Assembly (NCBI RefSeq): GCF_001949145.1
Contig: NW_019091356.1
Span: 248,001-312,000 of the forward strand
DNA: 64,000 bases
Source of the DNA: Acanthaster planci
Lineage: Eukaryota
Direction: 5' to 3'
Both the position numbers and the translations under genes were made by a program. The notes beneath the pieces are model-generated. The model worked only from the letters and a program-made list of their open reading frames with translations. It was not told where the DNA came from and made no database searches. Below are positions 6,873 to 60,700 of the stretch, piece after piece (position 1 is the stretch's first letter; every line of letters starts with the position of its first letter).

Positions 6873-7897
6873 CTGCAAGACACAGAAAAGAACTTTTATC
6901 ACAAGGCAGTTACCAAAATAGAAGTTAGGAAAATCATAACACGACACTGATTACTTCTACATCGAAAACAACGCATTCATTGCAAAAAAAAAACCAATTG
7001 TTTCCGTTCACTGCACGGAACATCTCCAGTATTGGAGGCTCTGAGATGAATGTTATATATTCAAAGCATGTCTCGTCCCCATTGCATTATTTTTTATCTC
7101 TTTTAGCAAAGGTATACGGACCAACGCCTAGTGACCACAAGACACCTTTAAACCTTCAGTCGAATGGAATTTTCAAAGAACCATTCACTTGTCTACAAAT
7201 TTCTGGTACAGCTTTACCGTACACTCTCTCTCAAAAGCCTCTAAATTCAACGTAGCCCTGATTCAAAACACATCGGTGTATCAAGTATCAAATTCTGGCA
7301 CAGAGATAGTTACCACAAGATAAAATACAAAGCCAACTTATTCTAACACTAACCACAAATTAAATCTGTCTTCGCCTCAACTTGTTGTTTAATCTAGCAA
7401 CGGTTATGACGTCTTTTAATACGTGAATCGTAATTAAGCGTAACACCCCGAGGTGCAAGTGGTTTTCTTAGTTAGAACATGGGGAATCTAGTTTCCTTCC
7501 TTGGGCAGAGACAGAATAACTGGAGCGTACACCCGTTCTGCTTATCGCAAAAGTTCCTAACAAAAACTGTTAGTAAAGCTATTGGCCTGGAAGCAGATAA
7601 TGGCTCGTAATTAACAAAAAATTATAAATAGAAACCACAGGACTGTTCCTATAAGGACGTGCAATTACTGCATTATAAACCCTTCTCATAATAACTGTAC
7701 ATGTAAGACACAGAGTTTAAGCAAGCTCGGAGGATCAAGATTAAAACATACATCGAATGTCACTGCATAGGTGTTGACTTCCGAAATGTTTCTCCAGAGA
7801 AAAGAATCATTTTAATTTTTAAAAATTGCTCAAGGTAATAAGCATTCGAAATCCCAAATTTGCTAAACTAACGTCAGCTAAAGATTTAGAATTTTAC

Positions 7898-10800
7898 CTG
7901 TTGCCTCCATAACCAGGTCTGCAAAAACATTCTCCAGTCACGTGATCGCATGTGCCACCATGCTCGCATCTTTGACACTTCATCTTACAGTTTGCACCGT
8001 AAGTTCCCTCTTTGCATGGAATTCTACAGTCTGGTCCCTTCCAACCAGCCTCACAGATGCAACCACGGATATGATGGCATGTGCCTCGATTTCCACATTG
8101 GCAAAGCCCTGAGCAATTTTCTCCATATTGTTGTCTTGGGCAGGTGTAATTGCATCGAGGTCCTCTCCAGCCACTGGTACAAATACAGCCATACACATGG
8201 TGGCAGATGGCATCGTTTTCACACTGACAGGTCTTTTGACAAGCAGGTCCATATCGTCCTTCAGTACATGGGTTCTCACAATGCCTTCCCTCCCATCCGG
8301 ACTCGCACACACATCCTAGGACTTTGTCACACTTCCCGTGCATCCCACACTGACATTCCACCGTACAGCCAGCACCGAAGAAACCCGGTAGACAAGTTTC
8401 ATTACAGTAACGTCCTTGCCAGCCTGGCGAACACATGCACCCAAATTCTGCATGGCAGTGGCCCCCATTAAGACACGAACATTCCTCCTGGCAGTTTCTT
8501 CCGTAGAACCCATCTGCGCAGCGTTGCTCACAGGCGTCTCCCATCCATCCTGATTGACAGACGCAACCTCTTACTGCATCGCACTCTCCACCATTTTGAC
8601 ACTGACATACTTTGCCACACTGTACTCCATACGTTCCAGCTTGACACGGAACCAAACACGCCTCACCCTGCCATCCTGCTGCACAATCACACCCATTGAT
8701 GGGATCACAAGACGCACCATTGCCACAGTCACATTTCCTACTGCACTGTCTACCATAGAAACCATCCATACACGGCTGGTCACAACTCTCTCCCATCCAT
8801 CCGTCCAAACACTCACACATTCCAGTAACAGCGTTGCAAGATGCATTGTTTACACAATGGCACTGTTGATTGCAGCCGACGCCATACTGTCCATCCTGGC
8901 ACTGATGCTGACACAGTTCCCCAGTCCAACCTGCCTGACACGAACATGAGCCCGACGTTGTATTACACTGACCACCATTCTCACACTGGCATTCCTGTGA
9001 GCAGTTTAGACCAAAGAAGCCTTCAGGACAGGCCTTGTTGCAATGTTCTCCCAACCAGCCTGCAGAGCACCTACAGGCACCACTAACTGAATCACACGAA
9101 GCACCATTAAGGCACGTACAGGCCTCCTTACATCTGTCCCCATAGAAGCCTGGCTGGCAATTATGGTCACAGTGTTCACCTATCCATCCACGCTCGCACT
9201 GGCAGCTACCACTAATGGGATCGCACAATGCACCGTTCTTACACTGACACACTGACAAGCAACCTACACCAAAAGTTCCACGCGGGCAAAAATCAGAGCA
9301 GAATGGTCCTTTCCACCCTGGTGTACATAAACATGAACCATTGCGCTTGTCACATGTCGCCCCGTTTTCACATAGACACCTCTCCTGACACTGAATGCCA
9401 TAGTAGCCATCTCTACAAGGTTCTTGGCACTCATCCCCTACCCATCCAGAAGAACAAGAACAATTGCCGTCAACTGCATCACACAGACCGTCATTTCTAC
9501 ATCTACAGACATTCCTACACTGCAAACCGTAAAAGCCCCGTTGACATTTACTCTGACAAAACTTACCAGTCCAGCCAGCCAGGCAAACACAAGTACCGTG
9601 TTCACGATGGCAACTAGCGCCGTGTAGACATGGGCATCTCTTGGAGCATGCGTGGCCATACGTTCCATTCGGACATGGAATTTCGCAGAAATCACCCCAC
9701 CATCCCGGACTACATAGACACGCCCCTGTCACGTGATCACAAGCTGCATCGTTTGCACATGTGCATTTCGAGGAACAGTCCTGACCGTAGAAGCCAATTG
9801 GACATGATTTATTGCAGTTTTCCCCAAACCATCCTGCCGTGCAACTACACGATCCATCGATGTGGTTGCAAATGGCACCATTTTCACAAAGACAAGTTTG
9901 TCGGCATTGGACTCCATAGGTTCCTTGTTCACAGGGCTGATCACAAACCATACCCTTCCATCCCAGGGTACAGGTACAACTACCTGTCTGTGGATCACAT
10001 AAGGCGCCGTTCTGACACAAGCATTCTTCAGTACAGTTGAAACCATGCAAACCTCTACGGCAGGCCATTTCACATTTTGAACCCATCCATCCGCGAGAAC
10101 ATAAACATGCTCCTGTTACAGCATCACACCTAGCTCCGTTTAAACACTGGCATCGCGAGGTACAGCCATGCCCATAGAATCCTTCGTTACAGATATACTG
10201 ACATAACTCCCCTTCCCATCCATGCTGACAGGTGCAATTTCCAGTTACGAAGTCGCAGTCAGCACCGTTTTGACACCTGCAGACCTCATTACATTCTCTA
10301 CCATAGAAACCTTTTGGACAAGGTTCCTCACACAACATACCTTGCCACCCCAAGGAACACGTACAGGTGCCGTCAACAGCATCGCATGTACCACCATGAA
10401 GACACTGACACTTCATCTGGCAATTGACACCAAAGAATCTGTCTGGACATTTCTCGCTACAAGTATCTCCGGTCCAACCAGCTGGACACGTACATGTTCC
10501 GTGCACTGGGTTACAAGTCCCACCGTTTTCACACCGACACTGTATCAGACAACTTAGTCCAAAAAGTCCAAAGGTACACGAAGCATTGCAGTAAGTCCCT
10601 TGCCAGCCAGGTGAGCACCTGCAGGTCCCTGTGACTGGATCACAAGTCCCTCCGTTCTCGCACTGGCAAACTTCAGAACAACTAGGCCCAAAGAAACCAT
10701 CAGCACACCGCTTGTCGCAGTTTATACCGGTCCAACCAGGTCCACAGGAGCAGACACCTGTGACATGGTCACACGTAGAGTTATTCTTGCAATCACAAAT

Positions 10801-11311
10801 CCCGCGACATCTGTCTCCGTAAGTTTCGTGGGCGCATGGAATACCACAGTGCTCTCCTAACCAACCAGGGCCACAGGTACATTCTCCAGTGATATGATGA
10901 CATTTAGCTCCATTCCGACATTGACATAGTCTCTTACAACCACTTCCATACCGACCACCGGTACATTTGATCTCACAATGCATACCTATCCACCCTGGTC
11001 TACAGTAACAGTTGCCCTCGGAAGGACTACACCCTTCACCATGGGCACAGCCGCATTCATGAGAGCAATCCTGGCCATAGAAACCCCATGGGCAAAGCTC
11101 ACTGCATTTTGTACCCTGCCATCCTGGTGGGCAGTTACAAGTTCCGTTGACTGGGTTGCATGTACCCCTTTCACAGCGGCATTTCTTCAAGCAGTCTTGT
11201 CCGTACGATCCCTCCACACATCGAGTCTGGCAAAGATTTCCACTCCAGCCTATCGTGCAGGAACAGGAGCCGTCTACACTACTGCATGTTCCACCATTTT
11301 GGCAACTACAT
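7898..11311 (-). CDS. Gene A exon 4: 3414-nt exon with about 27 tandem laminin-type EGF repeats
   Basis: Contains ORF 7894..11217; 27 C-x-x-G-[WY]-x-G motifs at 42-43 aa spacing; acceptor ttttccgtag, donor AG|gtaaaa; phase 2 to 2. Confidence 0.97.
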
Positions 11312-39348: not shown

Positions 39349-42275
39349 ATGCGACTGCAACGCTTGCGTTCACAGTCGTTCGTGAAACAGCGATGCGCAA
39401 GTACTACCAAAGGAGCCTCCATTGCCAGGAAATTTCTACTGTCTCTTGGTCCAGCACAGAGCCCATAACCACTAGCCAGTTGGACTTCTACTATTCCAAG
39501 CCGTCACAAAGTACTTCGAATGCAAACCTAAATTCAGGGTCGAAGCGGTTAATACTGGGGGTACTTGCTAGAGTTCTAGCCTCTGTTGCTATCAGAATCT
39601 AAGAGATTGAGGTTGCATGTTATCTTGGATAGGAAATTGTAATTTCCTTGCTAAACAAATGGGCAACAATTGAGTTGGCATAAATGTGCCATGGAGTGTA
39701 TGATTGGGTTTTCCCCACAGAGTTTATCGATAAGCATCCTCCATTCCTGTGTCATCCATCCTTTAGGAAATCATCATGTTCGATCATTTACTAGAATGCT
39801 GTGCTCAGGAAACAACCTTATTCATCACTACTGTCATTTGATGCCAAGACAGTGGGAGATTTGGTGGCAATTCAGACTTCGAAAACGACGTGCGTGACCA
39901 TCATCGAATGCAATCTTCCGCTTGCTTGGTTCTTTCATTTCCTATTCACATTTCAAGAAGTCGTAAATGACTGCCGTGGCACAGGAAAGTCGTGATGCGA
40001 AACATGCCTATCCCCAACCAGAGAGGATTTGGGGAAGTAAGTTCGTTTTATGGTTCCTTCACAGCTTTCAAACGCCGCAACAACAAACAAGACGAGATAA
40101 CTATACATGACCGCATACACAATATCTTCGTCTTGCATGCACTACATAAAAATGCTGCCGCCTGGAAAAAATGAAGCCGTAGAGAATTTACCACAATAGT
40201 ACGTCGTTGCTGTTAGAACAACTGGCAACAATGTACTTTTAAGAGAAAGAAATCTAAACATTTATAGCGTTCACTTAAAATGACAAAATAACTGACCTAT
40301 ACCTTTGATGAACCAATTGTTCAGATTAATGTTGACTATCAAAAAGTATAGTCACGATCAAGATCCAATCTAAATTTGCCAGGTTTCCATCATAGATCTG
40401 ACTTCAAGGTTATGCAGGAAATTCACATCTGCACTTCATTTTCTTCCTGCTTGGTGGCATGTGTAATGAAGATCACGAAGGACCTGACATGTCTGTTACG
40501 TTTCTGTCCAGTGTCATTTCCCCCCCGATTCTTGGCAATAATCCATGAATGGCATGCTTTTGCTATCAAAATGCTGTCAGGTCACTGGTGCAGTACCAAT
40601 AGAAAGTCACAAGAAGCTCCCATTAATTGGATCCACTTTTTCTATACTTGGAACTCCTTCAGAATTCACAGGTACAGTACTCCCGTAGCTTCTCCGTTTA
40701 ACCTTTTATGGCACTTCATAACAAGTTGAAAATTCTTGTAGTTGGCGCCAACCAAAGCTAGCGGTTGTAGCTAAACACAACTTTCTTTTTTTATTAAGTG
40801 ACCAAATACATGTAAAATTTGTTGACAGATCATGTAAGTTTTGCATGTGTAGATATTTGTTGGTGGAACACACCAAGAAGATGTGTTAATTTTTTTAATG
40901 ACGTTTCATATCAACAGTCTGCTCCAGAAGAATTGATCATACCATGCTGGTGATGAACAGTGACAGACATTCTTCCGTCAAATAAATTGACACACGGCGT
41001 ATCTAAACAGTACAAACGTCTCAAATTAAAATGAAAGAAATTTAGAAACATAATGAATGCAACGATGACTGTAAACTCATTTTTGATTTGGGTGATGATT
41101 GTTGGACTTACAAACAAAATCAGCTGAAACAAACACATTTGTAAGTAATAGATGAAATGACATATTATTTCACTTTTCAAATTCCAGCAGCGTCAAATTA
41201 AGTACCGGTATATGTAAATGGGATATTCATTGTACAATGTATGTAATAAATGTATAGCAAACGTTATCGTTTGGCGAATAAATTCTTGAAACGATTGAAA
41301 GTAACTAATAGATTAATATTAAAACATAGATGTTTAAAATCTGGGTAAATACCATCTCTTTAGACACATATTTTAATATCGTGATAGATAAAAACAAGCC
41401 CATGTACTTTGAATTAAGTTATTTACAATATCAACTACCTTCAATATCATTCCGCATTTTCTCCACAATACAACTGTAAGATCTTAACTTTCTGTTATGG
41501 TGTCACAGTTTTGAAAACGTCCAAGTGGTAAAATCTGCATGCATTCAGAGTAGTAAATATTTGAAAAGTGAGTGATACACCATCAAGAATCTGGTGAGAT
41601 GGTGACGGATAGGTGTTGATACTGAAGGGGAGACTTTGTAAACAAGCATATATACATGTATGTACAAAGGGAATGAAGCCAAAATTGGTAGTGTCGGACA
41701 ACTATGGATTGAAATTATTCACAAGCAGATCTTGCTCTTTAGATTTAAGTTTTCTGAATCTTTCAATATATAGGTAAAAATGCTCTTTATAACTGTATGA
41801 TGACTATGAGTTGCATTGAAGCTAGTTTGACCTTAAAAGGTTATTTATATAAATGAAGTCACGTATTGGTTAATTTTTTCGGGCCTAAGTAGCCCCCTAA
41901 CTGCCCATAGCTATGCCCAAACTAGAACCAAACTATGGGAAATGACACGAACTGTGTCTTGAGATGGGCATCAAGAGTGGAACCAAACAAGAGAAGTCCT
42001 AAACTCTTGCGCTGCAAAAATACGGAGTGTTTAAACAGGATTCGGTCTGAAAGTGACACACACAGTTATTTTCTGGTCTTTGTTCACACTGCCTTAGCTC
42101 AGCAACACTTTCTTTCCATGCGCATTTCTCTCTCCAACGCAATGATTGTCACAGAAATATTTGAGTACTGTGGACGCAAGAGGGCGCTGTACTTACTATA
42201 AAAATAATCTTCGGTAAACATTCGCTTTACCCTATCCAAGCCATATTATCTGCGTCGATTTCACCGCTTCATTTA

Positions 42276-42589
42276 TCAGAAACCATCCCTTTTTGCCACA
42301 TTAGAGTTGGTCATCCTAGCGTTTCCACCGGCACTTGGTCGCTCCACATCTCTCTCCAACGTCACTGATGGTATCTCATATCCATCAGCATCTATTCCGG
42401 AGTACGTGGGGTTTTCAACCGTACCTGTCTGGACTTCATCGTAGATGTCGATGTATGAGTTGGGAGAGGGTTGAAATCGGGGATCATGGTCGACATCACT
42501 GCGTATAGTCTCATACCCTCCTAAGCTGTTGTTAGGATCTGTCACATCTCTTGTGAAAGTGGCTGGATTTCGGGGCAAAGGGGTTGGTG
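42276..42589 (-). CDS. Gene B exon 9: cytoplasmic tail with NPxY and Tyr motifs, stop
   Basis: (A)PTPLPRNP...GGYETI...SYIDIYDEVQTGTVENPTYSGIDADGYEIP...KRDGF then TGA; acceptor tgtaccgtag. Confidence 0.88.
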
Positions 42590-42983
42590 CTACGGTACAA
42601 ACGAATAGACAAACACCGATTCAAATAACTGAGGTTTATAACCAGAGTCTAAAAAGACACGAATTTTTTACTTTTTGTCTTTAAGATGGATGATCCTTAT
42701 CAATTCGATGCAGTTAAATGGCAACTTCCCAAAAATTTATTTGTATGTAAAGTATTGACATATTTATCAAACAGGTTTCAATGTGCTTATGCAGGATACT
42801 AAGGAACGTGTGTATCGATTGTCAATTCCAATTGCAATGAATTAAGACATGTATGTCAAACGGTAAACCAGACTTGGGAAGGAAAGGGGCTTATTTTATT
42901 TACCAGTTTTGGAATGTGCCATCGTATCCAGTAATATATCGTAACTTGAATCATGTCTAGTTTGCTGTCAGAATTGAACTCAC

Positions 42984-43108
42984 CTAAATCCACATTCCCA
43001 GCCTGGTATCTTATTGTACCGTTAGTATGAGGTACACTGCTCTGAAGGGACATCCGTGACATGGGGTTCGAAGTTCCGTTGGCTTGTGATACAAGTGCCA
43101 CACTTGGT
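42984..43108 (-). CDS. Gene B exon 8: short cytoplasmic exon
   Basis: (T)PSVALVSQANGTSNPMSRMSLQSSVPHTNGTIRYQAGNVDL; acceptor acgtacag, donor G|gtgagt; phase 2 to 1. Confidence 0.82.
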
Positions 43109-43544
43109 CTGTACGTTGTAAGGACAGCAATTATGAATAATCACCTGATATAAATAGCAGATGCATGGTCAAATGGGTGAGGGACGTCAAAATCCACCTG
43201 TTCCTTTATTGAATCCGCTGTTGTACTGAAAAATATATCTACGTGTACTTCTTCTTTGCCTGATTGAGTATATGGCTCCAAATAAATTTTGTACCAGCAA
43301 CGTGCCAAAGTTATCGAAAGTACTTAAAGAAAAAAAGGCACTCATTGATAATTTCCATTTTAAGTTTAAACATTTTGTCTAGACCTGTAGCTGATCAAGA
43401 GTTTTTATGCCCCGTTGTTTGCAATCCAAGAGGATACATAATTGTGTTACCATACTGCAGGAATTTTCTAGGTTTTTTAAACACGTCTTCTATCATCAAA
43501 GCAGAAAATAAAACTTCACATTTTAGTTATTTTAGTTTACTTAC

Positions 43545-43671
43545 GTATTTGGTTTAGGACGATTGTATTTACACAAGATGCACACGGCCGTGATAATAAT
43601 GGCGAACAACAGGAAGGCGACCGACGCGGCAATCGCTGCGATTACCCCAGGACTCAAATCCATGCCACTTT
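43545..43671 (-). CDS. Gene B exon 7: transmembrane helix
   Basis: (E)SGMDLSPGVIAAIAASVAFLLFAIIITAVCILCKYNRPKPN; acceptor ttttcgtag, donor AC|gtaagt; not in the ORF track. Confidence 0.9.
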
Positions 43672-43963
43672 CTACGAAAATACAAGAACAATGATTACGG
43701 AATTTCAAATTTTAATCCTTTCTTTTCTGTCTTTTCTGAGACTCTTCCCATGTTCACTTGACTCGACGAGAACGACAAAGGAACATGTCGCATAACCCCA
43801 AAAGAGAGACGCAAACAGAACCAGAGCAGAGAAGCTGATATCATGACCCCGAATCATCTCGAATAAATGTCGCCACATGCTGTCAACAATCTTGTTTTTT
43901 TATCAGTCATAATGAACAAGTCTAGACGATAAAATGTTGCTTTTACTTACCAAAAATTTTTAA

Positions 43964-43981
43964 AATAATAATAATAATAAT
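43964..43981 (+). repeat. (AAT)6 microsatellite
   Basis: aataataataataataat in a gene B intron. Confidence 0.8.
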
Positions 43982-44604
43982 CTTACCACAATCTCAATCA
44001 CTCCAATGGAACTATAGATGTAATGAGAGTTTAATTATCCTTTCGAAAGGCGAAACTGCGCGTCACTGTGTTCATTTAGAAGCTAGAGAAAATTCACATG
44101 GATATATGACGTCGTTTTCTGACGTCCCGATCAAATGCATGTATCACAGATGTAGATCTCTCTGTCACGCCTATCTCCGTGCGCATGGAAGACATTAGCA
44201 ATTTTATGGACACACTTCATTGCATTGTCGGTAATTGTCAAGTCCATGAACAAAACTAGTGAGATTCATTTGTATATAGAAGCATATTAAAACCTGAAAA
44301 CACCCGATGCTGTCGTGTACCTTACTGAATAGACGTTCTTTTCAAGACAAATTGGATTCATTTCCTTCAACGGATCTTCGGGGCTTGTTCCCCTATTAAC
44401 GGTATTACATAGGAGTAGTCGAGTTTGTGTAATGGAACTAAACTGACCAGGTTTGAAACTCATGCACACTTTACTCTCACAATAAATTAAACAGATAGGC
44501 CTACGCATTCCAGTGCACACAACGGTGCTTCTTGAGATCTAAAGCTGTAAATCTACTGTAGAGAAAGGGAACGATCAAGATGCCAAAAGATAATGTTTTC
44601 TTAC

Positions 44605-44708
44605 CTAAACAAGTTCCACTGATAGGCTCACATTGCTCGGATTCTGTACAGATGCACGTTTGGGAACAACTTTCACCCCAATGGTTGTCTTCACATGGTA
44701 ATGTACAT
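44605..44708 (-). CDS. Gene B exon 6: terminal half EGF repeat
   Basis: (L)CTLPCEDNHWGESCSQTCICTESEQCEPISGTCL; acceptor ctttcccaag (AAG type), donor G|gtaaga; not in the ORF track. Confidence 0.9.
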
Positions 44709-44996
44709 CTTGGGAAAGATACAAATTAGCAAGGAAAAACAGTTACACCAATTTTTTTTTTCTAATACTACAACATTTCCATCAACTCATGCAGTATGTT
44801 CATGAGAATACTTTTCATCCTTTTCACTTATGGCTGTGAATGATAATTGTTATGACAGTCTTTTAACAAAGAGGGCGCCATTCATGAAGCGCGTTGCACG
44901 ACAACGGAGATTGAGACATATGACTCCTGATATGGCCACAAAGTCACATTTCCACCATAATGCATTTCCAAAGCAATTACTGAAAAAAACACTTAC

Positions 44997-45441
44997 AATT
45001 TTCCCTTCCATCCCTTGGGACAGCTGAAGCAGGTGCCACCCACGTGATCACAACCATCATCTTCTGGGCAGTTACACTGCTGTTGACAATCATCACCAAA
45101 ATATCCCGATGGACACCGTTTATCACAGTAGTCCCCAACCCACCCAGGCAGACAGGTGCATCGCCCGTCCGTTGGTTGACAAGATGCTCCGTTGACACAC
45201 TGACAATTCTCCCGACAGAGATATCCTTGTGTGGCATTATCACAACTATGTGTGCAGTACCTCCCTCGCCATCCGTCTTGACATACACACCTGCCCAGGA
45301 TATTGTCACAGAACAACATCTCCGGGCTGCACAAACTACAGAAAGCAACGCTCCCGCTCTGGCAACTTGAATTGGTAGAGGAAGCCTGGCAGTTTGTTTG
45401 ACAAAGATCACCAGCAAAGTCGATCGGACACAGGCAGCTAC
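44997..45441 (-). CDS. Gene B exon 5: EGF repeats
   Basis: (G)SCLCPIDFAGDLC...CVNGASCQPTDGRCTCLPGWVGDYC...CPKGWKGK; acceptor tgttgacag, donor TT|gtaagt. Confidence 0.93.
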
Positions 45442-45576
45442 CTGTCAACAAAATAAAGGTAATGTGAATAAAATACTCCAGAGTTATAAAAATAACGAAA
45501 TAACTCAATGAACTATGACGAATTGAGACACTCTGGAACCTTCAGATCACAACAGATGTTCCATGATTTGGCTTAC

Positions 45577-45786
45577 CAGTGACTGGGTGACACGAACCGC
45601 CATTTTGGCAAGGACAAGAATTTCCACAATCATCTCCATACCAGCCATCTGGACATGTCCGCTCACAGTGCTGACCAGTCCAACCTGGCTTACAATCACA
45701 GGAACCGTTGGTGTGGTTACACTCACCGTCGTTCAGACAGTAACACGTCAAGGTACAATTACGGCCGTAAGTTAAGGCTGGACAAA
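45577..45786 (-). CDS. Gene B exon 4: EGF repeats
   Basis: (V)CPALTYGRNCTLTCYCLNDGECNHTNGSCDCKPGWTGQHC...CHPVT; acceptor ttgtgtag, donor G|gtaagc. Confidence 0.93.
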
Positions 45787-46240
45787 CTACACAAGGTTTT
45801 GGAAATGGAAAACGATAACAAAGCATGAAAAGACACCGATAAATAACAATTACCAGATCAAACTTCTAAAGGGGAATGGTGATTTACTGCTTACCGTTAA
45901 TTATTTTTTAAAACATTCAAAGCTAAAATGTGGCAAAGATATTCAACAAGCCGCTTCTCAAATGAAGCGAACCAGTCTTTCTATTCCTAAAGCAGATAAC
46001 AACCGACAGGTCATCGCACTTTAAAAAGTGTCAACAAAACTGTGCAACTTTTAGTGATGAGCCCTTTAATGGATTTGTGGAAGAAGAACTGGATCACACC
46101 AATAACCCACAGAAATTGGTCCTAGCTCTATGACTAAACCCAAGACAAGGAGTGGCAGTCAAGTCCTCTAGCCATCCGAGTTCCCAATCCACCTGTGGAT
46201 TTCATATTATCCGATTTCATGTAAAATTGGAATATCTTAC

Positions 46241-46335
46241 CTTTTGGACAGGATTCACCCTCCTGCAAGAACCCATCACAACATCCGTAACTCTTCACCC
46301 TCAGGTACAAATCAGGAGCAGAGATAACGCCTGAC
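46241..46335 (-). CDS. Gene B exon 3: EMI end with CCxGF
   Basis: (R)SGVISAPDLYLRVKSYGCCDGFLQEGESCPK; acceptor tgtgtcatag, donor G|gtaaga. Confidence 0.88.
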
Positions 46336-46529
46336 CTATGACACAAAACTGAAAACTTTTAACACCTGTATGGGTTATCATAACCATTCACATTTAGAGT
46401 AATCTTATGATTTGCATGCCATAATATGTACCCATGTCATTGAACTTTAAAATAAAGCATTAATCATCCTTATATGAAATAAGGCTAACTGCTCAGAAAC
46501 TACATAATACGCCCACTGTTTGCCCTTAC

Positions 46530-46619
46530 CTGAGAGCATGGCACGTCGCAGAAGGGTAAAACGAGTCACACTCGTCCATCAGTTCACCTTCTGTCTTGTA
46601 ACTGGTTGCCAAATCTAAG
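46530..46619 (-). CDS. Gene B exon 2: EMI middle (two Cys)
   Basis: Acceptor tatttag; (S)LDLATSYKTEGELMDECDSFYPSATCHAL; donor AG|gtaagg; phase 2 to 2. Confidence 0.75.
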
Positions 46620-46968
46620 CTAAATACGTGTACAAAAATAACTCCTTGGTGATTGTCACTGACAATGGTTCATAATAAAAGAACATAGTTTGTAAACCCA
46701 TGGGTTACCAGTCAAAATTGTCGGACACTCAGGTACCCCCTTTTCCACCCATCTATTGAGTTTCTTAATGTCTGGGATTTTATAGTGAATGAACAAAATA
46801 GGCCTGACTTTCAACATAATCCTTATGAAACCTGTGAAACCTAAATCAAGCATTCAATTTCACAGGTGAGCAAATGGTCGAGTTTTTATCCCCACCTACC
46901 TATCCATTCCCTTTCCCCCACTCCCCCCGGGCAACTGCTATCTCAAACCTACATGAACAAATACCCAC

Positions 46969-47216
46969 CTTATTTTAGCACACACGTTTACTTCATCGTG
47001 GATTAGACCAAACGGATTGACGAAAATCCATGCTGCTTCAACTTGTTCATGATCTGACGACAATATCTCTGATTCAGATAAGCAAAGAGTTCCATGTGCC
47101 AAGAGTAAAGCAGTGGCAATGTGATGTAAAACGTCCCTTCTTGTGTGACAAGCGTGAACAGCCATGTTGACAATGGTAAAAGATGTTATGGGCATTTCAA
47201 AGAGGAAGCATGTCAT
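46969..47216 (-). CDS. Gene B exon 1: leader/signal region and EMI start
   Basis: ...HIATALLLAHGTLC-LSESE...DEVNVCAKI; donor AG|gtgggt, phase 2; start ATG is 47216 or the in-frame 47165; an acceptor ttcacttcag just upstream suggests a non-coding first exon. Confidence 0.7.
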
Positions 47217-50200
47217 CCGCTGAAGTGAATGAATTCTGCTTTATCTTTGTTCCCTTCTGGCTATCCACTTCCTCGAATTCAATTTTGAGGATGTTATGAA
47301 CCCAACATCAAAGCAGTCATTTCAGTAGAACATCGAAATAACGTACAGTGGTCCACGTTGCACAACTGAAGCATTTTGTCTAGTCGTAACAGTCGTCGTA
47401 TTCCACGGGTAAATTTCAAGTTCACTCTACTAACACCACTGATTCGAGAACAGGCGCAGAGTCAGAGGTTCAAAAGTATTTCCGAATTTTCAGTTCTGTT
47501 TAGAACCAAACGCCTAATTCCCGTCCTTGGTGTATGCTGAAAATGGTAGGCCTTAGTATACAACAAACACGCAATTGTTAGGTCATGCTTGGTCACTACA
47601 TGCATCAATGACCATCATACTGGTTACCCTTTGTTGTTCAGCTACAAAACTGTTCTGATCAAAACATACATATTCATGAATAAGATGACTCACTACTGGG
47701 TAGATGATATGGATAGCAAAGTCTTCATCTTTGTGTTTTTACGAGGGCATGTATTGGAGCTGAAATTTGCATTGACGCAAATAGCATTCATTGATCAATA
47801 CCAGCAATGTTCAGCTTGAAAAGGAAAGTTAGAGTAGAGAACAATAATTCTATTCAACCATGTTTCTGAGAAAAAACGGTCGCCCTCAACAGACCACAAA
47901 GACTTCAGTAACCGATATGAACATAAATCTTCCGTATGAATGGCAACGTGGTTTTCAAAGGAAATTATAATGATGTCACCTTCAACACAGGAAATGAAAA
48001 CACTACATGGTAGGGGACGAAAACTGCTCGGGCATGCACTCAAAGTCCTAATCTGTGGAAACATTCCACTGAGAGTCTTGCACTATTCATAATTAAATCC
48101 GGAACATTGTCAAAGAGTGTTTCTGCTCATCTTCCAAAGAGTCACAGTGCATTAAACAATTGAGATTTTCAGATAACATTATCTATCCTGACTTTTGGCT
48201 TAGTTAAAACGCTACGAATAAATTCAAATCACTTGGAGAAATGAACTTCATGCACTTCTTGCTAACTAGAATCAAAGATATAAATGGCTGCTCTGTTACT
48301 GTGCATGCATGAAAAGGCCATGCATACTCGAAAAGCTAACCATATCATTTTAGATGGCGACCTCACTTTGAATTGGCTTAGCAAATTCTGGAGCAGCGTG
48401 GAGCAACATTTGAACTATATAGCGCCCTCGTCACAACGTTAATCTGGCTTAAACACTGATTTGTACCCATTTCTGTTTCATGTAGGCTAACCGTAGGTCA
48501 AAGATGGATTGTAAAGTGATGTGAGTCTTTCTAGCTTACAACTATACAATGACATTTGCATAATTTGATCTTAATCTGGTGGTCACATGTTATATTTTGC
48601 TGAATTGTTGGGCCACGTGGCTTCCAAGAAAAGTTTAAGCAGTGTTCACTCCATGTTTTTAGGGAAAATAAAATAAACAAAATATTCGCAACAAATTCAA
48701 TAATACGTTTTCCACCAACAATATAATCTGGATTACGATTTCTAGATGGTCTATGAAATCCGATCTAATCTTGCTAAACTGAACGATATGAAATTTCATC
48801 GTGTTCTAAAGTTCTTCAAGCATTTTGTCTTTTATTAAATCAGGTGCACTTTTATTATTTTTTCCAGTAACTTACGATTGTCAACTTGCAGAAATTCTTT
48901 GATGGAAATTCCTATCCTATCCTATCAACAGTTCTGTTATGCTAGAGATGTAGTTTTGTAATCTTGGAACAGAGCAGTTAAAGTCATGAATAAAACAATT
49001 GGCAGTGAAAACCCACTGAATGACACAAACAGGAAACGGAAACCAGCGAAGATCCTGATAAAGTTGATTGTTCTGGGTTCCAGTTTGTGAGAGACCAACC
49101 TTTAGTACACGGTTAGCTTACAATCAAGAGACACCACTCAACCTACTTCCCGATTAAAGTCAATATGACACAGAACATTCACGTTCCTCGGTCGGCGTTT
49201 TTTTTTAAACTTTGGTTTTATTTACCTAAGTTTAGGGTTTCAACATGGTGATGACAAGCTGTCGGGTTCTAATATCCGTCCAGAGCGTTTCGTCATTATA
49301 TCAGAAAAGGGATGCACTTATCCGCAAGCATTATGGCCGTCAATTAACCTGAACACGTTCTTAACTTTAAGCAGAAATGTATCAATTTATGCGTATGGCA
49401 AAAACTGTCTCTTCTGCTTCGCGTATATGAGAAAAACTCATTAAGCCTTCCACACTGTTTAATTAACATGAAAGAACTCCTTTACGGAACATGGTTTCTT
49501 GCCCGAGCATCCTTTGGCGCAGCTTTCCACGTCAGTAATATTTTCTACGAAGGTTTGATTCGCTGATTTCCATACATTCTTGAAACTGATGTAATATTAA
49601 GGGTGCCGAGAGAGAACAAAAATACTTCGCAACAAATGTCAGCAACTAAAAAAATGTAAAAATACGTCAGCGCAGTTGTAATATCAGCGTTTAATCCGGA
49701 CTCAACAAAAATAGACACTTATGCCACTATTTCTAATTATTTAAAGGTTAGATTTGTAACTGATGGATTAAATACAATTACAAGTACATGTATGTTATGC
49801 TTCATTATATTTCAATTCCAGCAAAGTTAAAAGCTTTTTTAAAAAATATTTCGATACTCGCCAGCATTTAAGTATGAATTAGTCAAAGCTCTTTTAAATT
49901 AATTCACCAAGAAGTTACTACTTTTGTTTATTTCGAATGGCACATAAATTCATATTGCCAAAAAAGTTATAGTATACTTCATAGCCTCGGGATAAAACAG
50001 CTTTGAATTATTTCGAAATACAGTCTATATTCTACAGGACTCCGTCGTCTTCGCTGCAATTCAAAGTCAACTTTGATTTGGCATTATGTTATAAAACTTC
50101 TAGAATTTTTGTAACTGATCATTTAGAAAATATCATGACATTTCCACAGGCACAGTTTTTCAGTCTTTCCGTCCATTATACGGAAAACTAGCAAAAAGAG

Positions 50201-52641
50201 GAGATACCGTTGCCCTAGATAAATGGAAGACAATAATTCATTAGTATCTAATTACTTAGTTTCTGAGTTGGTCATTGACGTCTTATTAAAACACTCCTAA
50301 TTTGAGGATCTCCTCGATATCATTAAACATTAACTTCAGTGCTTTTCCCTGTATTATTGGAATAATTAGCACAAGAACAAAAGAGGCAAACGTCTTAAAA
50401 AGCTGACAAGTTGAACGAAATAACGAAAAGTATACATTTACATGTATATTGATATAAATCCGACAGTACATGAAGCGATATAAGCAATCTGAGACTGGAC
50501 ACAAAACGTGAAAATACAAAAAATTAGTGTGAACTCTCCCTTTTTCATCCGGAGATTTGCTTGAAAACTGACGAGAAAATGAGTACACGTGCTACAAACG
50601 CTCAGAATTGCCTTAAAGGACAAGAAAATGGTGAAGCATATGACCCGCGGTTACACGTGGAGTTCTTGTGACACATCCCAAAATAAGTATACATGCATTG
50701 TAATGGCACTGTGACAGCAGATTGGACAACTGTCAAATGACGATGACTTCAGAGCATGAATCTTGGGACAGACCTGTGATTTTACTTACTTATACGGGTT
50801 GGGTTTGTACCATGCACGGTGTTTGATTCACACAAACCGGATGGACCGAGGGTGTTTGTTACTAAAAAGCCAGCAATTACGCTTCCGTCATACGCATTGC
50901 TCATTCCCTAATGATAAAAGGCAGATTACATGGACTGTCTCCAGGCAAACAAGAGTCGGATTACTTAGTCTGGCAGGATTTTTCTGGAGGGAAGAAACTT
51001 GACATATTGCCAAGCGTCAAGGTTAAATGCTACGCTACTAAATCAAGGTAGGAAGCCATATTTGGACAAATCAGAATGCTTCCCTTTTTCCTCACAGCAA
51101 AATGCAGAGTGGTTTTACCGTATACGTTGAGAATTGTCGTCATTATTGACACGTGCATAAAATAATACTTAGACAACATGTATACAGACACTGAACACTA
51201 AGAAAAAGGTCTAGTTATGGTTTCTTAGCGACACACTGCATTGCGAACTCTTTCTATTGCATCAATTTAGTTTAAATCCACCATAAGGTGAAAAATATTA
51301 CACTCTTCAATTATTCAGTATTGCAGATTATGGCATTAAACAAAACTCGAGCAACAAACAAAACGATTGATTATTATACTAAGTAAGGTAATCTATGTGA
51401 GTTGTGATTTAAAAAATGGTTAATCAACAAGAGTGAGTCCATAAGGAATGTCCTCAATCACACGATCATAAAATTCTCTTGTGATATCTTCGCCTATCAC
51501 TGTCACGAGAGTTCACTGCATTATGGGTCGTTATATAATTTATCTGAGATTACGGTATGATTGATATTTAGATCACACGAACTAATTCATCAAGTTAAAT
51601 TTTAACCTTGATATTTTGGACAACCGATCTACAAATACTAGAAAGGCTGCAATCGAACACTTTTTCAATAGCATACAATATTCCTAACTACAGCTAAAAA
51701 TTAGAGGACCGAAATGTGGTAACATTCTCCCGTTTTAACCTCAAGTGAAGAAACATGCAGTAGTGTACGGTCTTGACACGTGTTACAACAACCATGCTAC
51801 AGTCCATTTTATACCATAATATATCGCTGCTGTTTTAGCCAGTAACTGAACAAATTTTCTTTTAATATGTCTTACTAGTCCACAAGCAAACCCTAGTAAT
51901 GGCCAAAAATAGTAAAAAACTAAAGATTACGTGACTAATCGACCGCATTTTTTACATGATTTGCACTTACGTTCCATTTGAGGAAACAACCTTCACATAA
52001 CCTGTATGTAAACAGTTCTACAAAATTTCTAGTATGAAAATAACTGAGCCGGGAAATACGTTTACAAAAAGCATTAATTATTGACACTTTGTCAAGTTCA
52101 CTTATTGTACTTCCTTTTGCCAAATACAAGCACATTGCGTTTTGCACATTGTTGATGCTTGGTAAAATACATAACACTATAATGACGAGAAATAAAAAGG
52201 AATTGGCATTTCAGAGCCCAAGATGGCTTCCATAATATAATAGCTACACTGCAAAAGCATTTTCCATTAAATTAGGAAAAAGAACCTTGAAGCCACGGGT
52301 GACAATAATTTCCCGTAAAATTTACACTCACCGTAATTACAAACTTAAAGAGTAAGACAACTGATGACTTAGGCCTATCCTTTACTTGCTCATACATTTG
52401 ACAGAAAATCGTTGGCTCTCATAGCTTCCAAATTATCTGTCGTAAATTCACGGGATTTCGTTTTACAATTTAAGAGCATACTTTGATCTGTTTGTATCGC
52501 AAATGTTCCAGAACCGAAGCAAACAATAAAGACAATGACAGGAGTTGTACATTGCTCATCTACCGATTGTCTAGACTGTTTCCACTCTAGAAACATTTAT
52601 TGCAACATTTAGGAACACTGCACAAGTGGTAAAGAAAACTC

Positions 52642-53894
52642 TTAATTACCACCTGTGGGCGTGTTCTCATACAATGGACAAGTTTCTTCAAACTGTAGAG
52701 GGCAGGTGTTACCATACCTGACTGGGGGCGTATCGTAAACAGGTCTGAGCCCAACCAAGGGGGACGTCGGTTCTTCAACGCTGGCCCGCTGCATCATTTT
52801 TTGAACAGCAGGGGGCGTATCATACACGGGAGTGGCAACTTTCTGCTCGGGTGATTTAGGCAAGATGTCGTAAACCTGTGCACTAGGCATGCGAGGTGTT
52901 CCTGGCAGAACATCGTAGACAGGACGCACGACCGGAGGTGAAAATGCTGAAAGGTTATGATCGGTATTTAAAGCTTGTTCGTGATTCTCCAAGCCCGAAG
53001 CTGGCATTTTCAGAGTAAGTCCTTCAGGGACATTCTTCTTTGGGAGGTTCTCGTAAATTTCCCCGTCTGCCGGTTTCTTCATTTCAATGGCGTCATACTG
53101 GTTCGTGCCTAAGTTACCGTTCGGTATGCCGTTGAGAGTTCCATTTCTATTTCCTGAATCATTCAAGCCATGTTCAATGGAGCATCGTCGAGCCAGCTTG
53201 TCATAGTCCGTTGATCGACCCTGTGCACCCAATTCATCGTATGTATTCAGTCCAACGATACCAGTTTTTCTCTCAGAATCGACACCGTGGGCTTCGTGTC
53301 GTTCAAGCTTATCGTAACCAAGGTGACTCTCAGGACCAAGTGTCGAATAACCAGGAGCTGCTGGTATAGGCGTGTCCAACTGATCGTCTCTAGTAAGGTG
53401 GGATACACCACGCTGTCTGTCCAGTTTGTCGTATGGGCCTTGTTCTGTGGTCGGTCCTATGATGATCATATTGTATGCCTCATCGTCTGGATCTGTGGGG
53501 ATATTTCCACCCATGGTGTCGAATACCTCTGGCGCCTTGACGACTGTATCCAACCCGGGTACGTTCTGATATGGCGAAACTACCTCCTTACTCTTCTCTG
53601 CGTCGCATGTTTTCGAGAACACAGCCCCGTTTGGTCCTAGGCGAATCTCTATGCCGACTTTCTTCATTTTTGGTGATCCGTCACTAGCTTCACTGGGCGC
53701 ATCTCCACAACTTGTAGCCTCTTTGAGGTCCTGATATGTGTTTGAGAGACCAGACGGCTGTTTAGTGTTTATGAAAGCAATGTCGTAGTCGTCGAATGAC
53801 ACGTCTTTTGTGCGGGTGCTGTTTGCTTGATCCCCTGCAGCATTAGTATGGCCTTCACGGTCTGGTATTTCTGTGTAAATGTCCGGGGTTGGAG
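52642..53894 (-). CDS. Gene C exon 6: long tyrosine-motif-rich cytoplasmic tail, stop
   Basis: Acceptor ttcttccatcag; (A)PTPDIYTEIP... runs in frame into ORF 52642..53802; 18 Tyr, mostly in YxxL/I/V, YDxP or YxN contexts. Confidence 0.9.
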
Positions 53895-54363
53895 CTGATG
53901 GAAGAAAAAAATGATTACTTGAACATTATACATTTCGGGAAAGCTTATGGTTATATTAGATCACGGAGCTTTAAAACCAAGAAACTCTAGCAAACTATGA
54001 TATACAATAAACGAAAAATAATCCCACAGTAACAAGAAAACACTGCAGGTATACAATGCAGTAACTATGTCTCCAAGAAAAACACTACTCTTTGCTAATT
54101 CAGAATTAAGTTTAACAAGGAAGCACATAGGCCTACTTCTGTTTATCTGAAAAGTATATTTAAATTTAGTGAAAATAACTCATTGTAATTAACAAAGAAC
54201 TATTTAAAATATCAAGACCCTCAAAGATAATGCGTAAAAACAAGACATACAAGAGGCAAGTCTAATGCTAAGATTTTACGGGAAAGGGGAATTTGATTGG
54301 ACGTACATTAAAGAAAAACTCTGTCTAGGATACTTTGTTCATCATGATGAAGGAAATTCCTAC

Positions 54364-54422
54364 CTCGACCGGGAGAGTTGGCATTTAATAACTGAAAGAC
54401 AACTGCAGGATCGGACTTTCGC
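54364..54422 (-). CDS. Gene C exon 5: short cytoplasmic exon
   Basis: Acceptor ttttgcttccatag; (R)RKSDPAVVFQLLNANSPGR; donor G|gtagga; the only good phase 2 to 1 bridge I found between exons 4 and 6. Confidence 0.65.
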
Positions 54423-55544: not shown

Positions 55545-55893
55545 CGCCTATCTCTTGCTTGACGTTTTCTCTTTGTAACAAAGACGACAACCAGTGACAC
55601 TAAGACGACAAAAGCTACTGCCACTCCAACCAAGCCACCGATCATCCCAATATGTTCACCATCTGTCGGAGACCCCTGTGGTGACTCCCCACCCTTTCCC
55701 AGGGTCCTGGGCCCATCAACCTTCGAGATATTCCCTGGAGGCGATCCAGAGACAGTTCCAGATACAAAGGATGGTGACGAGGGTGACCCCTTTGGGACGA
55801 AAACTGCTGTGTCGTTGGAGAGCGTAGGCGTGGTTCCATCGACCTTGGAGGGAGTCAAGGCATCCGTCAGCTGTGATTGAGTTGTTATTTCCT
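55545..55893 (-). CDS. Gene C exon 4: S/T/P/G-rich stalk, TM helix and basic stop-transfer segment
   Basis: (E)EITTQSQLTDALTPSKVDG...IGMIGGLVGVAVAFVVLVSLVVVFVTKRKRQARDR; donor CG|gtaagc; phase 1 to 2. Confidence 0.88.
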
Positions 55894-56281: not shown

Positions 56282-56397
56282 CTGATGTATTTTGTAGACA
56301 TGATCCGTCAGACTGCATCACCCAACCGTTACAGCAGGTGAATACGATGTTGTAACTATCACGGTAAGCTACTCTCGTCTGAGTAGAGTACACAACT
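56282..56397 (-). CDS. Gene C exon 3: EMI end with CCxGW
   Basis: (R)VVYSTQTRVAYRDSYNIVFTCCNGWVMQSDGSCLQNTS; acceptor cattattag, donor G|gtaact. Confidence 0.9.
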
Positions 56398-56818: not shown

Positions 56819-56917
56819 CTGTAACGCGTGCACCGTGACAAACCCCAAATTCCACATTTCGAGTAGGATTTATGGGATCTTGAAACCTGATAAGTTTCTT
56901 GATATGTCACCGTTGCT
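56819..56917 (-). CDS. Gene C exon 2: EMI middle
   Basis: (R)ATVTYQETYQVSRSHKSYSKCGIWGLSRCTRY(R), resembling the MEGF10-type EMI pattern (V-x-x-QESY...C...W..C.R.R); acceptor cacaacag, donor AG|gtacgt; not in the ORF track. Confidence 0.9.
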
Positions 56918-57578
56918 CTGTTGTGAAGGCGATTGAAGAGAAACACAGAAATAGTTTAGATAAAGTCACTACTGTCACAATAAAAACATTCGTGACCATT
57001 AGAAACCGTCAAAGATCGCTCACAGGAAATAACCTTTTCAAAACATTCAACTAACATTCAAACATTTATGAACTTTTAAATACTGTCACTTATCTCCAGT
57101 AGTTTAAACAACCTGGACACAGTAAATAAGAAAAGGTTTGTTGGAAAGATAAGGAATTGTATGGGATGAGAGTAAACTAAAACACAGTTGCTTTTAGAAT
57201 TGTGGTTGCAGGGGACAACAAACTATGAATAGAGAACTGGAAGGTATGGAGGAATCAAATACGTATTTCAGGTTAAGAGAAATTTTATTCTCAATTATCA
57301 TGGAGAAGTATTTAACAGTCATTATGTGAATTAATCAACCAATAAGAATCTCTTCTTCCCCTTTCTTTGCTTTCGTAACTCAGACCCTTCAAATCAACCG
57401 TATTTCATTTCCAATACCAAGATAGAAATTTCAATACTTTTCGAATAACTAGTAACGCTGAGAAAAGGCTTTCATCATCTTAAAATCCAATCTAGTAATT
57501 AATCTTTGAATTAAGCAATTAATTAATTCATCACTGAAATTGAAAATAATTAACTACATTTGTTTAGATTGGGCCTAC

Positions 57579-57721
57579 CTTTCGACACTGGAACACAGCC
57601 CAATGTTTCCATCAGTTTGCGCCGTAGACAAAATCACGCAATTCAAAACTGTGATTACGAAGAAAATCTTTCCAAAACAAGCACAGTGTCGTGCGATTCC
57701 GTGGAGACCGGGCCATTCCAT
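57579..57721 (-). CDS. Gene C exon 1: signal peptide and first EMI Cys
   Basis: MEWPGLHGIARHCACFGKIFFVITVLNCVILSTA-QTDGNIGLCSSVE; donor AG|gtaggc, phase 2; an acceptor tttatcag 2 nt before the ATG implies an upstream non-coding exon. Confidence 0.8.
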
Positions 57722-60700
57722 CTCTGATAAAGTAATCCTGATGCTATGCTAATGGTTTCCAAAATGACATTAACCGCCAAACGAAGTCAGCCCAATATCT
57801 GAAGATTTATTCAACTTTTACTGGTCGCTATTTAGGAAGTTTTTGTGGACGACGAGTGTATCAACGAGCAAATTCTTCCAAACTACACACAGTTGCTGTT
57901 GTTTTGGCCGTAGCTGGAGCCAAAGTCCAAGTCACAACGCCATATACCTTGACAACACCTGATGATGTTGGTCAAGTATGCTACTAACGAGGAGAATGGC
58001 ACTCATGTACGTACATGAACAATGTACATAGCAAACACTACAGGAACCAAGTCCTGACGAACACCAAAGATTTACACTTGCAACGCAACGTTTAATATGG
58101 CTACGACGCTGGGTGGTGGGATGTGAGAACAGGACAACGACGTATGAGTCAGTGTCGATTCCGATGTTTCGATAGAATCCGGCTGGTACTAAGAAAACAG
58201 CCCACCATCAAAGCGCATGTTGTTAGCGTCCCTCAGAAATGTCAAATCGAATCATAGGCCTATGCTGTGTCGTACGAACTACTAAATCGCTTGCTAGTAG
58301 GCTAAATACGCGTGTACGATGGGATGAGTGCTGGGAACGAGGTATGACTCAGATGACACTGCGGCTTACAAGCACTATGCATGGAACATGTACAGTACAT
58401 GTACATGTACGCTGTTCTCACTTACTGTTGACTATACCCCAAAACTTCCGTGTCCCATGAAAGGCAGCGAGGTACACCCGTATTGTAGGGGTTTTGAAAA
58501 GCTCCGTTGACCCGAGGGAACGGTCTCACACAACAGGTGAGAAACGTCTATTGTCAGCGTTTACACTCGTTCCCCTTCCATCCTGTACAGAGGGGTACAT
58601 GCACAAGTACAGCCGGTAGCGGCGAGAATGACTTGTGTGCGGCTAAAACCGCGTGGGACAGCATACTGACCTGTGCAAGTCGGAGATGGATGAAGGCCAA
58701 CACGAAGGTGTTTGAAGTGTGGTTTGATGATTAAAAGGTCTGTATAAGGTAGATTTGTGGCAAGTCTAGCATGGACTTGCTTGACTCGATGGGGGCGTGT
58801 TTTACACAAATGTCTCAAATTTAACTAAAACAAAGTTTGCTGTTGCTGTTACCTTTTGTTTTTACAGAAGCTCGACTAGTATGCACATGAAACCGTAGAA
58901 TCGTCAAAATATAGAAATAATATAACAGCAAACCGAAGAAAAAATGGCTTGAACAACATTGGATATAGTGTATACTTTGGATGATACAGTATTTCAAAGG
59001 AGTTTCTGGGAGGAACTGGTGTCTGAATAATTCAACGTTAATGATCATCCGGGTACAGAGCATGTACTTACAAAGTGCTTTTCGTAAGACCAACGCCCAC
59101 TACAAAAAAACATCTTTGTACTTCTTTTGTCTGATTGCATGGCGTAATGATGGTATTTTCATTTTGGCTTGGCACAAACCGAGGGAAGGGCGGCTGATCT
59201 GCCCCAAAACTGGGGGGGGTATATGTCTCCATCCCTCTGAGGTTTTCGTCCGTGTTTTATTGACAATCTAACTTTCAGGACCAGGAATTCGGTACAGAGG
59301 ATAATTGTCACCTCATACATCCTTATTAGATACACCATGTTGGAGGTTATACGAGGACATGGATTTAATGGGCAAACCACAGAATGAATCATTGCCAAGC
59401 TGGGTTTCACCAGCCAATTCAACGCTCAGTCAAATAAAAGACATGTTAACAGCCTTAATTCGCTATACTTAAGAACCCGACGAAGAATGACTTGCCAAAA
59501 TCAACAATCCGCACAGATGAGTCTATTAATCTGGCCCTGAAGTGAGCTAAACTCAGTACGAATTCACTCACCCTTAAATATAATAGACCAATAATGAGAA
59601 TGCCTCGTCAACCTATTTCCAAGTCTGTACGTGCTAATACAGGTTCGTTACTCAAGAATTTTTTTCTCAATAAAATTGTTGAAAAGAAATTTCTTGAAAA
59701 CTCGAGGTTGTTAAAGACTCAAGTTTTAATAATGGAAGGGGTAGATTATGAACAATTATACTTTGCTGACAATGATGTACACGACTGTAAACTAAAATGT
59801 TATCAACAAGGGGCAGCCTACATCGATCACATGCGCAGTAGAAAAATGATGCAGTTTACCGAAAAAAAATTATTTAAAATAGATGGAAGAATCGTATTAC
59901 CGTATTATAATGAATAATAGAAAGCGGGAACAAGTGATGACAAACGCAAATACATGTACTGCAGTGCCTCGAACGCCACCAGTGATTCGGCAGGTACAAG
60001 AATGGCACATGAAATTTCTAGGCCACCTTACACTTACATTCTTCAAATCCTCAAGATGTTCAGACAGTATGCACTTCAACGTCTACAAACCACCCATTGA
60101 AATTATACTAGAAGCGAAAGGCCAGTTGGATTTTAGCATAGGTCTTTAAACCTGTCTGTAACTCAGACAACGGAAATGGTACTCACATTATGTCCAGTAC
60201 CTGAGATGATAAAGGCCGTCAATCTCAAGCAAGATTGTGCACCTCTCTTTCGAGAAAGAAATGGATGAAAGAAGTTTACTCTCATCTCTGTCTTAGTCGA
60301 GGCATGATGGTGACAACTCTTGGTGGATTTGGTTGCTTGTTCTCTCCTTGTTCTGACTGCCACGTACTCAGCATACTGTTCATATTAACACAAATTCAAT
60401 AAACCTTCCAGAAAAAATCTGGAGCGCTGAGTTCTAAACTCACGTGAGCATAATTTTGAATTCTCTACATTGTCGCTTTACTTCGTGATTCGGGCAAGCT
60501 TTTGCTTAGTTACATAAGAGACGCCTTGCACCAATGCAATGTTTTCAATGGAGAAGAAGGGCACAAAGGAACCAGTCCATTCCAGAGATGGTGGTCGCTA
60601 TGCACAAGCTTGCTTTGAATCACGAAGTATAGCAATAGTACAACTTGCTGGTCACGAGTTGAGTGCGCCAGTCAATCTTACTGCACTGAAAAAAAAAATC

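Follow-up and report, generated by a model that had tools for sequence, protein, structure and literature searches.

An expressed EMI-domain receptor of Acanthaster planci with a candidate two-block phosphotyrosine docking tail

Like CED-1, Draper, MEGF10, and Jedi-1 (PEAR1), gene C of Acanthaster planci, the subject of this report, encodes a protein with an EMI domain at its N-terminal end, a single membrane helix, and a tail rich in tyrosines. In these four engulfment receptors, Shark or Syk reads loosely spaced ITAMs (PMC6219719, PMC4055271, and PMC8092387). In Draper, an ITAM formed by Tyr-934 and Tyr-949, with a spacer of x11, is required for Shark binding, and the non-ITAM tyrosines among the 13 in its tail contribute too (PMC6219719). 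The ITAM tyrosines of Jedi-1 lie at positions 923, 941, 1004, and 1016, i.e. with spacers of x14 and x8 (PMC4055271). The ITAM consensus is given as Yxx[LI]-x6–9-Yxx[LI] in 10.1101/2022.03.04.482883 and as Yxx[LI]-x6–12-Yxx[LI] in PMC6219719. Drosophila NimA resembles gene C in its short EMI-led ectodomain, its tail without a known domain, and its conserved tyrosines but carries one NIM and two EGF-like repeats; NimA adhesion requires the EMI domain, and the term ITAM occurs 0 times in the main text of the NimA paper (PMC13076899).

ITAM-pattern tails are common, and often ambiguous, in invertebrate receptor clusters (10.1101/2022.03.04.482883 and 10.1101/2022.03.25.485889). The ITAM-tailed receptors concerned (Hydractinia Alr, Botryllus FcoR, and those of oyster and amphioxus) are single-pass proteins of clustered genes with ITAM- or ITIM-pattern tails and mostly putative functions. 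The Alr proteins have Ig-type ectodomains and approximately three tyrosine motifs per quoted tail (10.1101/2022.03.25.485889), whereas gene C has an EMI domain and, together with its relatives, 18–20 tyrosines in a tail conserved between species. Repeated proline-flanked tyrosines in an unstructured stretch, as in gene C, are also seen in the p130Cas substrate domain and in choanoflagellate membrane proteins with YxxP repeats; p130Cas/BCAR1 itself has an SH3 domain, 6–25 YxxP motifs, and a FAT-like domain (PMC5043372). Like gene C, CD3-zeta combines a small ectodomain with several tyrosine pairs per chain, in its case three ITAMs (PMC4428620). A literature search covering few subscription journals returned no paper on gene C or on a five-ITAM invertebrate chain, and none on an ITAM receptor in echinoderms; further, the main text of the Asterias rubens coelomocyte proteome paper does not name a gene C ortholog.

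Transcript and domain plan of gene C

The window analyzed here is a stretch of 64,000 nucleotides of A. planci DNA, in which three genes for EMI-type receptors lie on the minus strand, gene C being the most upstream of them. Eight runs mapped to the region supplied the RNA evidence: four consisted of raw RNA-seq reads, drawn from three studies, and the other four were contig sets presumed to derive from RNA. Gene C has six exons and five GT-AG introns, supported by RNA joints and contigs, and one RNA contig of 3,881 nt covers all six exons:

57579..58512, minus strand: exon 1, with a 5′ UTR of approximately 790 nt containing 13 upstream ATGs and the start codon at 57721 (RNA contig, joint 56917–57579); its product is a predicted signal peptide (approximately residues 1–34, hydropathy peak 13–34) and the first EMI cysteine (translation, hydropathy)
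56819..56917, minus strand: exon 2, middle part of the EMI domain (RNA joints, Pfam)
56282..56397, minus strand: exon 3, end of the EMI domain with a CC.GW motif (RNA joints, Pfam)
55545..55893, minus strand: exon 4, Ser/Thr/Pro-rich stalk and membrane helix, the latter at 55651–55577 (RNA joints, translation)
54364..54422, minus strand: exon 5, a 59-nt juxtamembrane exon joining the reading frames (joints in 7/8 runs)
52642..53894, minus strand: coding part of exon 6, carrying all 18 tail tyrosines (RNA joints, translation)

The spliced product of 672 aa matches XP_022084855.1, an uncharacterized A. planci protein, letter for letter, and the tyrosine pairs fall within a minus-strand open frame of 427 codons (52642–53925). 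Read depth over gene C was low to moderate, and there was no alternative joint among those listed. Nine coding variants were classified among those listed, seven of which change an amino acid and none of which falls within a tyrosine motif. We also considered whether gene C might be the 3′-terminal part of a longer gene with EGF repeats and rejected this, as a single RNA contig spans all six exons; the RNA joints connect the EMI exon directly to the stalk exon, with no EGF repeats between them. Further, a search through 3,936 candidates brought up no longer form of the gene C tail (729–2080 aa), which speaks weakly against an EGF-bearing form. Within the leader (57722–58512), the 13 upstream ATGs open frames of 3–34 codons and may possibly exert translational control. 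At the other end, a 3′ UTR of approximately 2.8 kb (49860–52641, from RNA depth and contigs) stops approximately 2.3 kb short of the first exon of gene B. We also note a ∼120-bp element at 60492–60613, which took most reads in one RNA read mapping, has many loose ends on both sides, and looks like a high-copy transcribed repeat.

In order, the product consists of the predicted signal peptide, one EMI domain, a Ser/Thr/Pro stalk (84 aa, 43% Ser/Thr/Pro), one membrane helix, and a tail of 447 aa with 18 tyrosines and no tryptophan. The EMI domain (residues 42–106, with six cysteines at 43, 69, 77, 102, 103, and 114) is the sole Pfam match above cut-off, with an E value of 7.5e-8 and 33.5 bits against a cut-off of 25 (29 bits in a second protein). 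The EMI receptor proposed in the earlier note is therefore real, being spliced and expressed, with RNA joints and a Pfam EMI match above cut-off. The membrane helix is uncharged, none of the three full-length proteins having Asp, Glu, Lys, or Arg in it, and contains two GxxxG motifs that are also found in both Asterias proteins described below. Near the membrane, the longest stretch without any difference between A. planci and the two Asterias proteins is a juxtamembrane motif around YTEI (APTPDIYTEIPD, 53877–53866). The tail is predicted to be disordered from its composition and from a low-confidence AlphaFold model built on a four-sequence alignment; the mean pLDDT of this model was 32.5, too poor for a fold search, and both the tail and the EMI domain scored below 50.

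NPxY, the motif for CED-6/GULP, does not occur in any of the four proteins compared (P0004, the A. planci gene C protein, and its relatives P0005, P0006, and P0007), and gene C is therefore not an ortholog of Draper/MEGF10. Pfam found no EGF repeat in P0004 or P0006. Thus, unlike CED-1, Draper, and MEGF10, gene C has neither EGF/NIM repeats nor NPxY and instead has a C-terminal series of proline-flanked tyrosines, and its tail and those of its relatives hold 18–20 tyrosines compared with 13 in Draper (PMC6219719). The comparison with Draper and MEGF10 made in the earlier note stands for the EMI domain, the single helix, and the tyrosine tail and is otherwise loose, because both EGF repeats and NPxY are missing from the gene C protein. 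In an ESM Atlas feature search, MEGF10/Draper-type clusters were nearest (0.83, a lead only); an Atlas cluster at the same score, likewise a lead only, consists mainly of arthropod EMI proteins with few EGF matches, which hints that EMI-only receptors occur elsewhere. Our best reading of the sequence is that gene C would be an EMI-only relative of the Draper/NimA family, and, by analogy, its inside most plausibly works like that of Draper or Jedi-1. As NimA, the nearest short-ectodomain analog, acts in adhesion and not in engulfment (PMC13076899), an immune role of gene C is putative.

The five tyrosine pairs and their conservation

The earlier note had listed five consecutive Yxx[LI] pairs, which were borne out exactly in the minus-strand last exon, with spacers of 10, 7, 8, 10, and 11 (positions from the translation):

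53475–53422, minus strand: pair 1, YNMI-x10-YDKL
53349–53305, minus strand: pair 2, YSTL-x7-YDKL
53241–53194, minus strand: pair 3, YDEL-x8-YDKL
53097–53044, minus strand: pair 4, YDAI-x10-YENL
52917–52861, minus strand: pair 5, YDVL-x11-YDIL

The translation also confirmed that the first three pairs close in YDKL-x-R. Four further tyrosines lie ahead of pair 1 and four after pair 5 (YDTP, YDTP, YGNT, and YENT), and the Tyr-Tyr gaps in the A. planci tail run 14, 28, 11, 25, 12, 36, 14, 46, 15. The tail contains 12 Yxx[LI] motifs; shuffling its residues 20,000 times gave 1.9 on average and never as many as 12 motifs or three pairs. When the motif count was fixed and the positions were randomized, five pairs at a spacing of 6–12 had p = 0.0004–0.021 over six nulls, and the doublet rhythm is therefore real. 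The narrower spacing of 6–8 is found in two of the five pairs and is compatible with chance at the given motif count (p = 0.19–0.64). An acidic residue two to three places ahead of the first tyrosine, which is typical of vertebrate ITAMs, is present in pair 1 of A. planci only and in none of the strict pairs of the three relatives. Pfam returned no match for the five pair fragments (27–31 aa, short motifs on which the HMMER filters drop weak matches), no ITAM-type profile matched the whole proteins either, and PDB searches gave nothing useful, a sequence search with pairs 2–3 matching no chain.

Three relatives, 45–52% identical, were found: Asterias amurensis P0006, A. rubens P0007 (taken from the same cluster as P0006), and an ENA fragment, P0005; conservation is thus judged on two genera and this fragment. 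A profile search with an alignment (A2) returned only two proteins and was insensitive, because it missed P0005, itself a row of that alignment. Both Asterias proteins share the EMI-stalk-helix-tail plan of gene C. The ten paired tyrosines and the short/long rhythm of Tyr-Tyr gaps are kept in all four proteins as follows (spacer lengths are given for A. planci, A. amurensis, A. rubens, and P0005 in turn):

Pair 1, spacers 10/12/12/11: YNTV-x11/12-YD[KR]L in 3/3 relatives, relaxed ITAM-like
Pair 2, spacers 7/8/8/8: YAAL-x8-YDKL in 3/3 relatives, strict ITAM pattern
Pair 3, spacers 8/9/9/8: YDAI-x9 or YNEL-x8-YDKL in the relatives, ITAM pattern at 6–9
Pair 4, spacers 10/12/16/13: YDTV-x12/16/13-YQNL in the relatives, tyrosines kept but not the ITAM pattern; its second half is YxN
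Pair 5, spacers 11/12/12/11: YxxV-YxxV in both Asterias proteins

As can be seen, Yxx[LI]-x6–9-Yxx[LI] is kept in 4/4 proteins by pairs 2 and 3 only, and at x6–8 pair 3 retains it in two of the four. Even under the wider x6–12 consensus, which pairs 1, 4, and 5 all match in A. planci, the pattern is absent in the relatives from pair 1 (3/3, Val), pair 4 (3/3, Val, with x12, x16, and x13), and pair 5 (2/3, Val). Five ITAMs were thus an overcount, as only pairs 2 and 3 hold the strict pattern in all four proteins.

Conservation had been put forward as a check on the pairs, and its outcome is mixed. On the one hand, the ten tyrosines and the doublet rhythm are kept: within the stretch common to all, P0006 and P0005 preserve 15 of 16 tyrosines, compared with 50 of 208 residues in the linkers outside the motifs. 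On the other hand, the spacers vary like linkers, length variation per residue being 0.21 within pairs and 0.24 between them, which indicates no special overall constraint on spacing. Residues are more often identical within pairs (20/46) than between them (31/119), and the pair 3 spacer has 0/8 identical residues and shifts in length by one.

These results bear on the reading that all five pairs are working ITAMs and that the gene C chain is a five-ITAM signal amplifier. The conservation of all ten tyrosines, the 18 of 20 spacers in the four proteins that fall within 6–12, the five-pair regularity (p = 0.0004–0.02), and the functional x11 and x14 ITAMs of Draper and Jedi-1 (PMC6219719 and PMC4055271) are in its favor. 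We nevertheless consider it very unlikely: Val occupies +3 of pairs 1 and 4 in 3/3 relatives, pair 4 has x16 in A. rubens compared with x12 in A. amurensis, and pair 5, which reads YxxV-YxxV in the two Asterias proteins, belongs to a periodic series. Because working ITAMs are loosely spaced in this receptor family, the variable spacers weaken, and do not exclude, pairs 1 and 4.

Probable two-block layout and repeat history of the tail

From the shared YDKL endings, the earlier note had suggested an internal triplication, which is not supported. The motif Y[DN][KR]Lx[RK] occurs in three copies in A. planci and in four in both P0006 and P0005, the fourth sitting in a stretch missing from A. planci. 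Repeat finders detected no DNA repeat joining the three YDKL copies, the codons of which differ, and any YDKL duplication must therefore be older than the split of these species; the copies could also reflect convergence on one SH2 preference. What the repeat finders did detect was the C-terminal series alone (family D1, three copies of 20 nt):

52657..52926, minus strand: [PQ][VL]Y[DE]xxP series, five copies (motif count, window similarity scores)

P0004, P0006, and P0005 each have five copies of this series, of which two per protein are strict YxxP, and the last copy is YxN, the Grb2 pattern. Pair 5 constitutes the first two copies. Its halves are most similar to each other and to the YDTP copies that follow, and the tyrosine after pair 5 (YDTP/YDIP) follows at a gap of 12/12/12/10, as long as the one within the pair; pair 5 is therefore part of a periodic series and not a doublet. 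Judged from its motifs, the C-terminal series looks like a docking block of the Crk/Nck/Grb2 type, and the tail is likely to be composed of two blocks rather than five equal pairs. Compared with p130Cas, gene C has five copies only, two of them strict YxxP, located behind an ITAM-like block, and Pfam found no SH3 or FAT-like domain in its protein.

Could the tail contain no ITAM at all? In that case, each tyrosine would act on its own as a sorting or single-SH2 site, the tail would serve as a scaffold in the manner of a Cas-type substrate domain or a transmembrane adaptor, and the doublets would be relics of old internal duplications. This would account for the equal indel load within and between pairs (0.21 and 0.24 per residue), the flanks that each tyrosine keeps as its own (DDEAY, GEIY, and RP[VL]Y), the likeness of the first halves of pairs 1 and 4 in the relatives (scores of 20 and 26), and the fourth copy, YNKL, which in P0005 and Asterias has no Yxx[LI] partner 6–12 residues before it. 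However, pairs 2 and 3 hold Leu or Ile at both +3 positions with a spacer of 7–9 despite an identity of only 45–52%, and both Syk and HTK16 are present in sea stars (PMC11593052). On balance, we regard a tail devoid of ITAMs as unlikely.

Candidate readers, neighboring genes, and significance

We lean toward gene C encoding an expressed, single-pass, EMI-only receptor with a two-block phosphotyrosine docking tail, probably an offshoot of the Draper/NimA family with two to four ITAM-like sites. In such a receptor, the EMI domain would bind a cell-surface or bridging ligand and cluster the receptor, and Src-family kinases would phosphorylate the tail. The middle block would then recruit the tandem SH2 domains of Syk or HTK16/Shark, most likely through pairs 2 and 3 and possibly through pairs 1 and 4, and the C-terminal [PQ][VL]Y[DE]xxP block and YxN sites would recruit the single-SH2 adaptors Crk, Nck, and Grb2, which may drive actin remodeling in engulfment or cell-cell contact. 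For the pairs other than 2 and 3, which match the ITAM pattern less closely, docking of different signaling proteins would be the likelier role. The SH2 domain of Crk binds pYxxP, and repeats of this kind are found in the tails of membrane proteins (PMC5043372). Patiria eggs contain transcripts for Syk, HTK16, Src-family, Abl, Crk, Nck2, Grb2, and PTPN11, and HTK16 is a relative of Shark that sea stars express together with Syk (PMC11593052). The best matches in that paper share their accession series with the gene C protein, which suggests that A. planci has these readers too.

The same motifs also admit a tail that is mainly inhibitory or mixed, acting through an SHP2-type phosphatase at ITIM-like sites or through Syk with an inhibitory outcome. 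LxYDKL, in the second half of pair 2, matches the ITIM consensus in 4/4 proteins, Hydractinia Alr tails show the same ITAM-or-ITIM ambiguity (10.1101/2022.03.25.485889), and amphioxus Syk suppresses NF-κB (PMC13344425). An inhibitory tail is nonetheless highly improbable in our view, as just one ITIM-type site is common to all four proteins, there is no ITSM, and position −2 is not hydrophobic in most motifs.

Two further EMI-type genes lie downstream of gene C. Gene B (41305–47600, minus strand) is RNA-confirmed, has nine exons, and encodes 585 aa from the ATG at 47216, with an EMI-like domain, EGF repeats (57 ectodomain cysteines), a helix, and a 154-aa tail bearing NPTY, IYDEV, and one YxxV-x9-YxxI pair. 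Judged from these features, gene B, and not gene C, appears to have the Draper wiring and to be the most Draper-like of the cluster. The tails of genes B and C show no detectable kinship (score 40; shuffles 39 ± 6). A minor acceptor 4 nt off in gene B (joint 45437–45577, four reads in run X19) would shift the frame. Gene A (7897–11310, minus strand), the structure of which is read from the sequence, has a 3.4-kb exon with approximately 27 eight-cysteine EGF-laminin units (213 cysteines in 1,138 aa) and no ITAM pattern in its last exon; because EGF-laminin repeats are usually scattered over many small exons, intron loss or in-exon expansion is possible. A division of labor among genes A, B, and C is a guess. 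In its strongest form, gene C would be an amplifying partner of its EMI-EGF neighbors, with at least four working ITAMs and a Cas-like adaptor block, representing a CD3-zeta-type division of labor derived from the Draper family, which we consider quite unlikely. Zeta, FcR-gamma, and DAP12 assemble through an acidic residue in the membrane helix, whereas the gene C helix is uncharged; further, gene C spacers vary, and the CD3-zeta tail is several times shorter than that of gene C.

ITAM signaling outside vertebrates is accepted, yet few receptors have been tested (in fly, oyster, and amphioxus). Gene C is conserved and unannotated, lacks two Draper-family features, the EGF array and NPxY, and has an enlarged tail. 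It offers a clean test of Syk/HTK16 reading in a non-chordate deuterostome, and of motif number against signal. If only two of its pairs work, the architecture would still be unusual, with wiring like that of Jedi-1.
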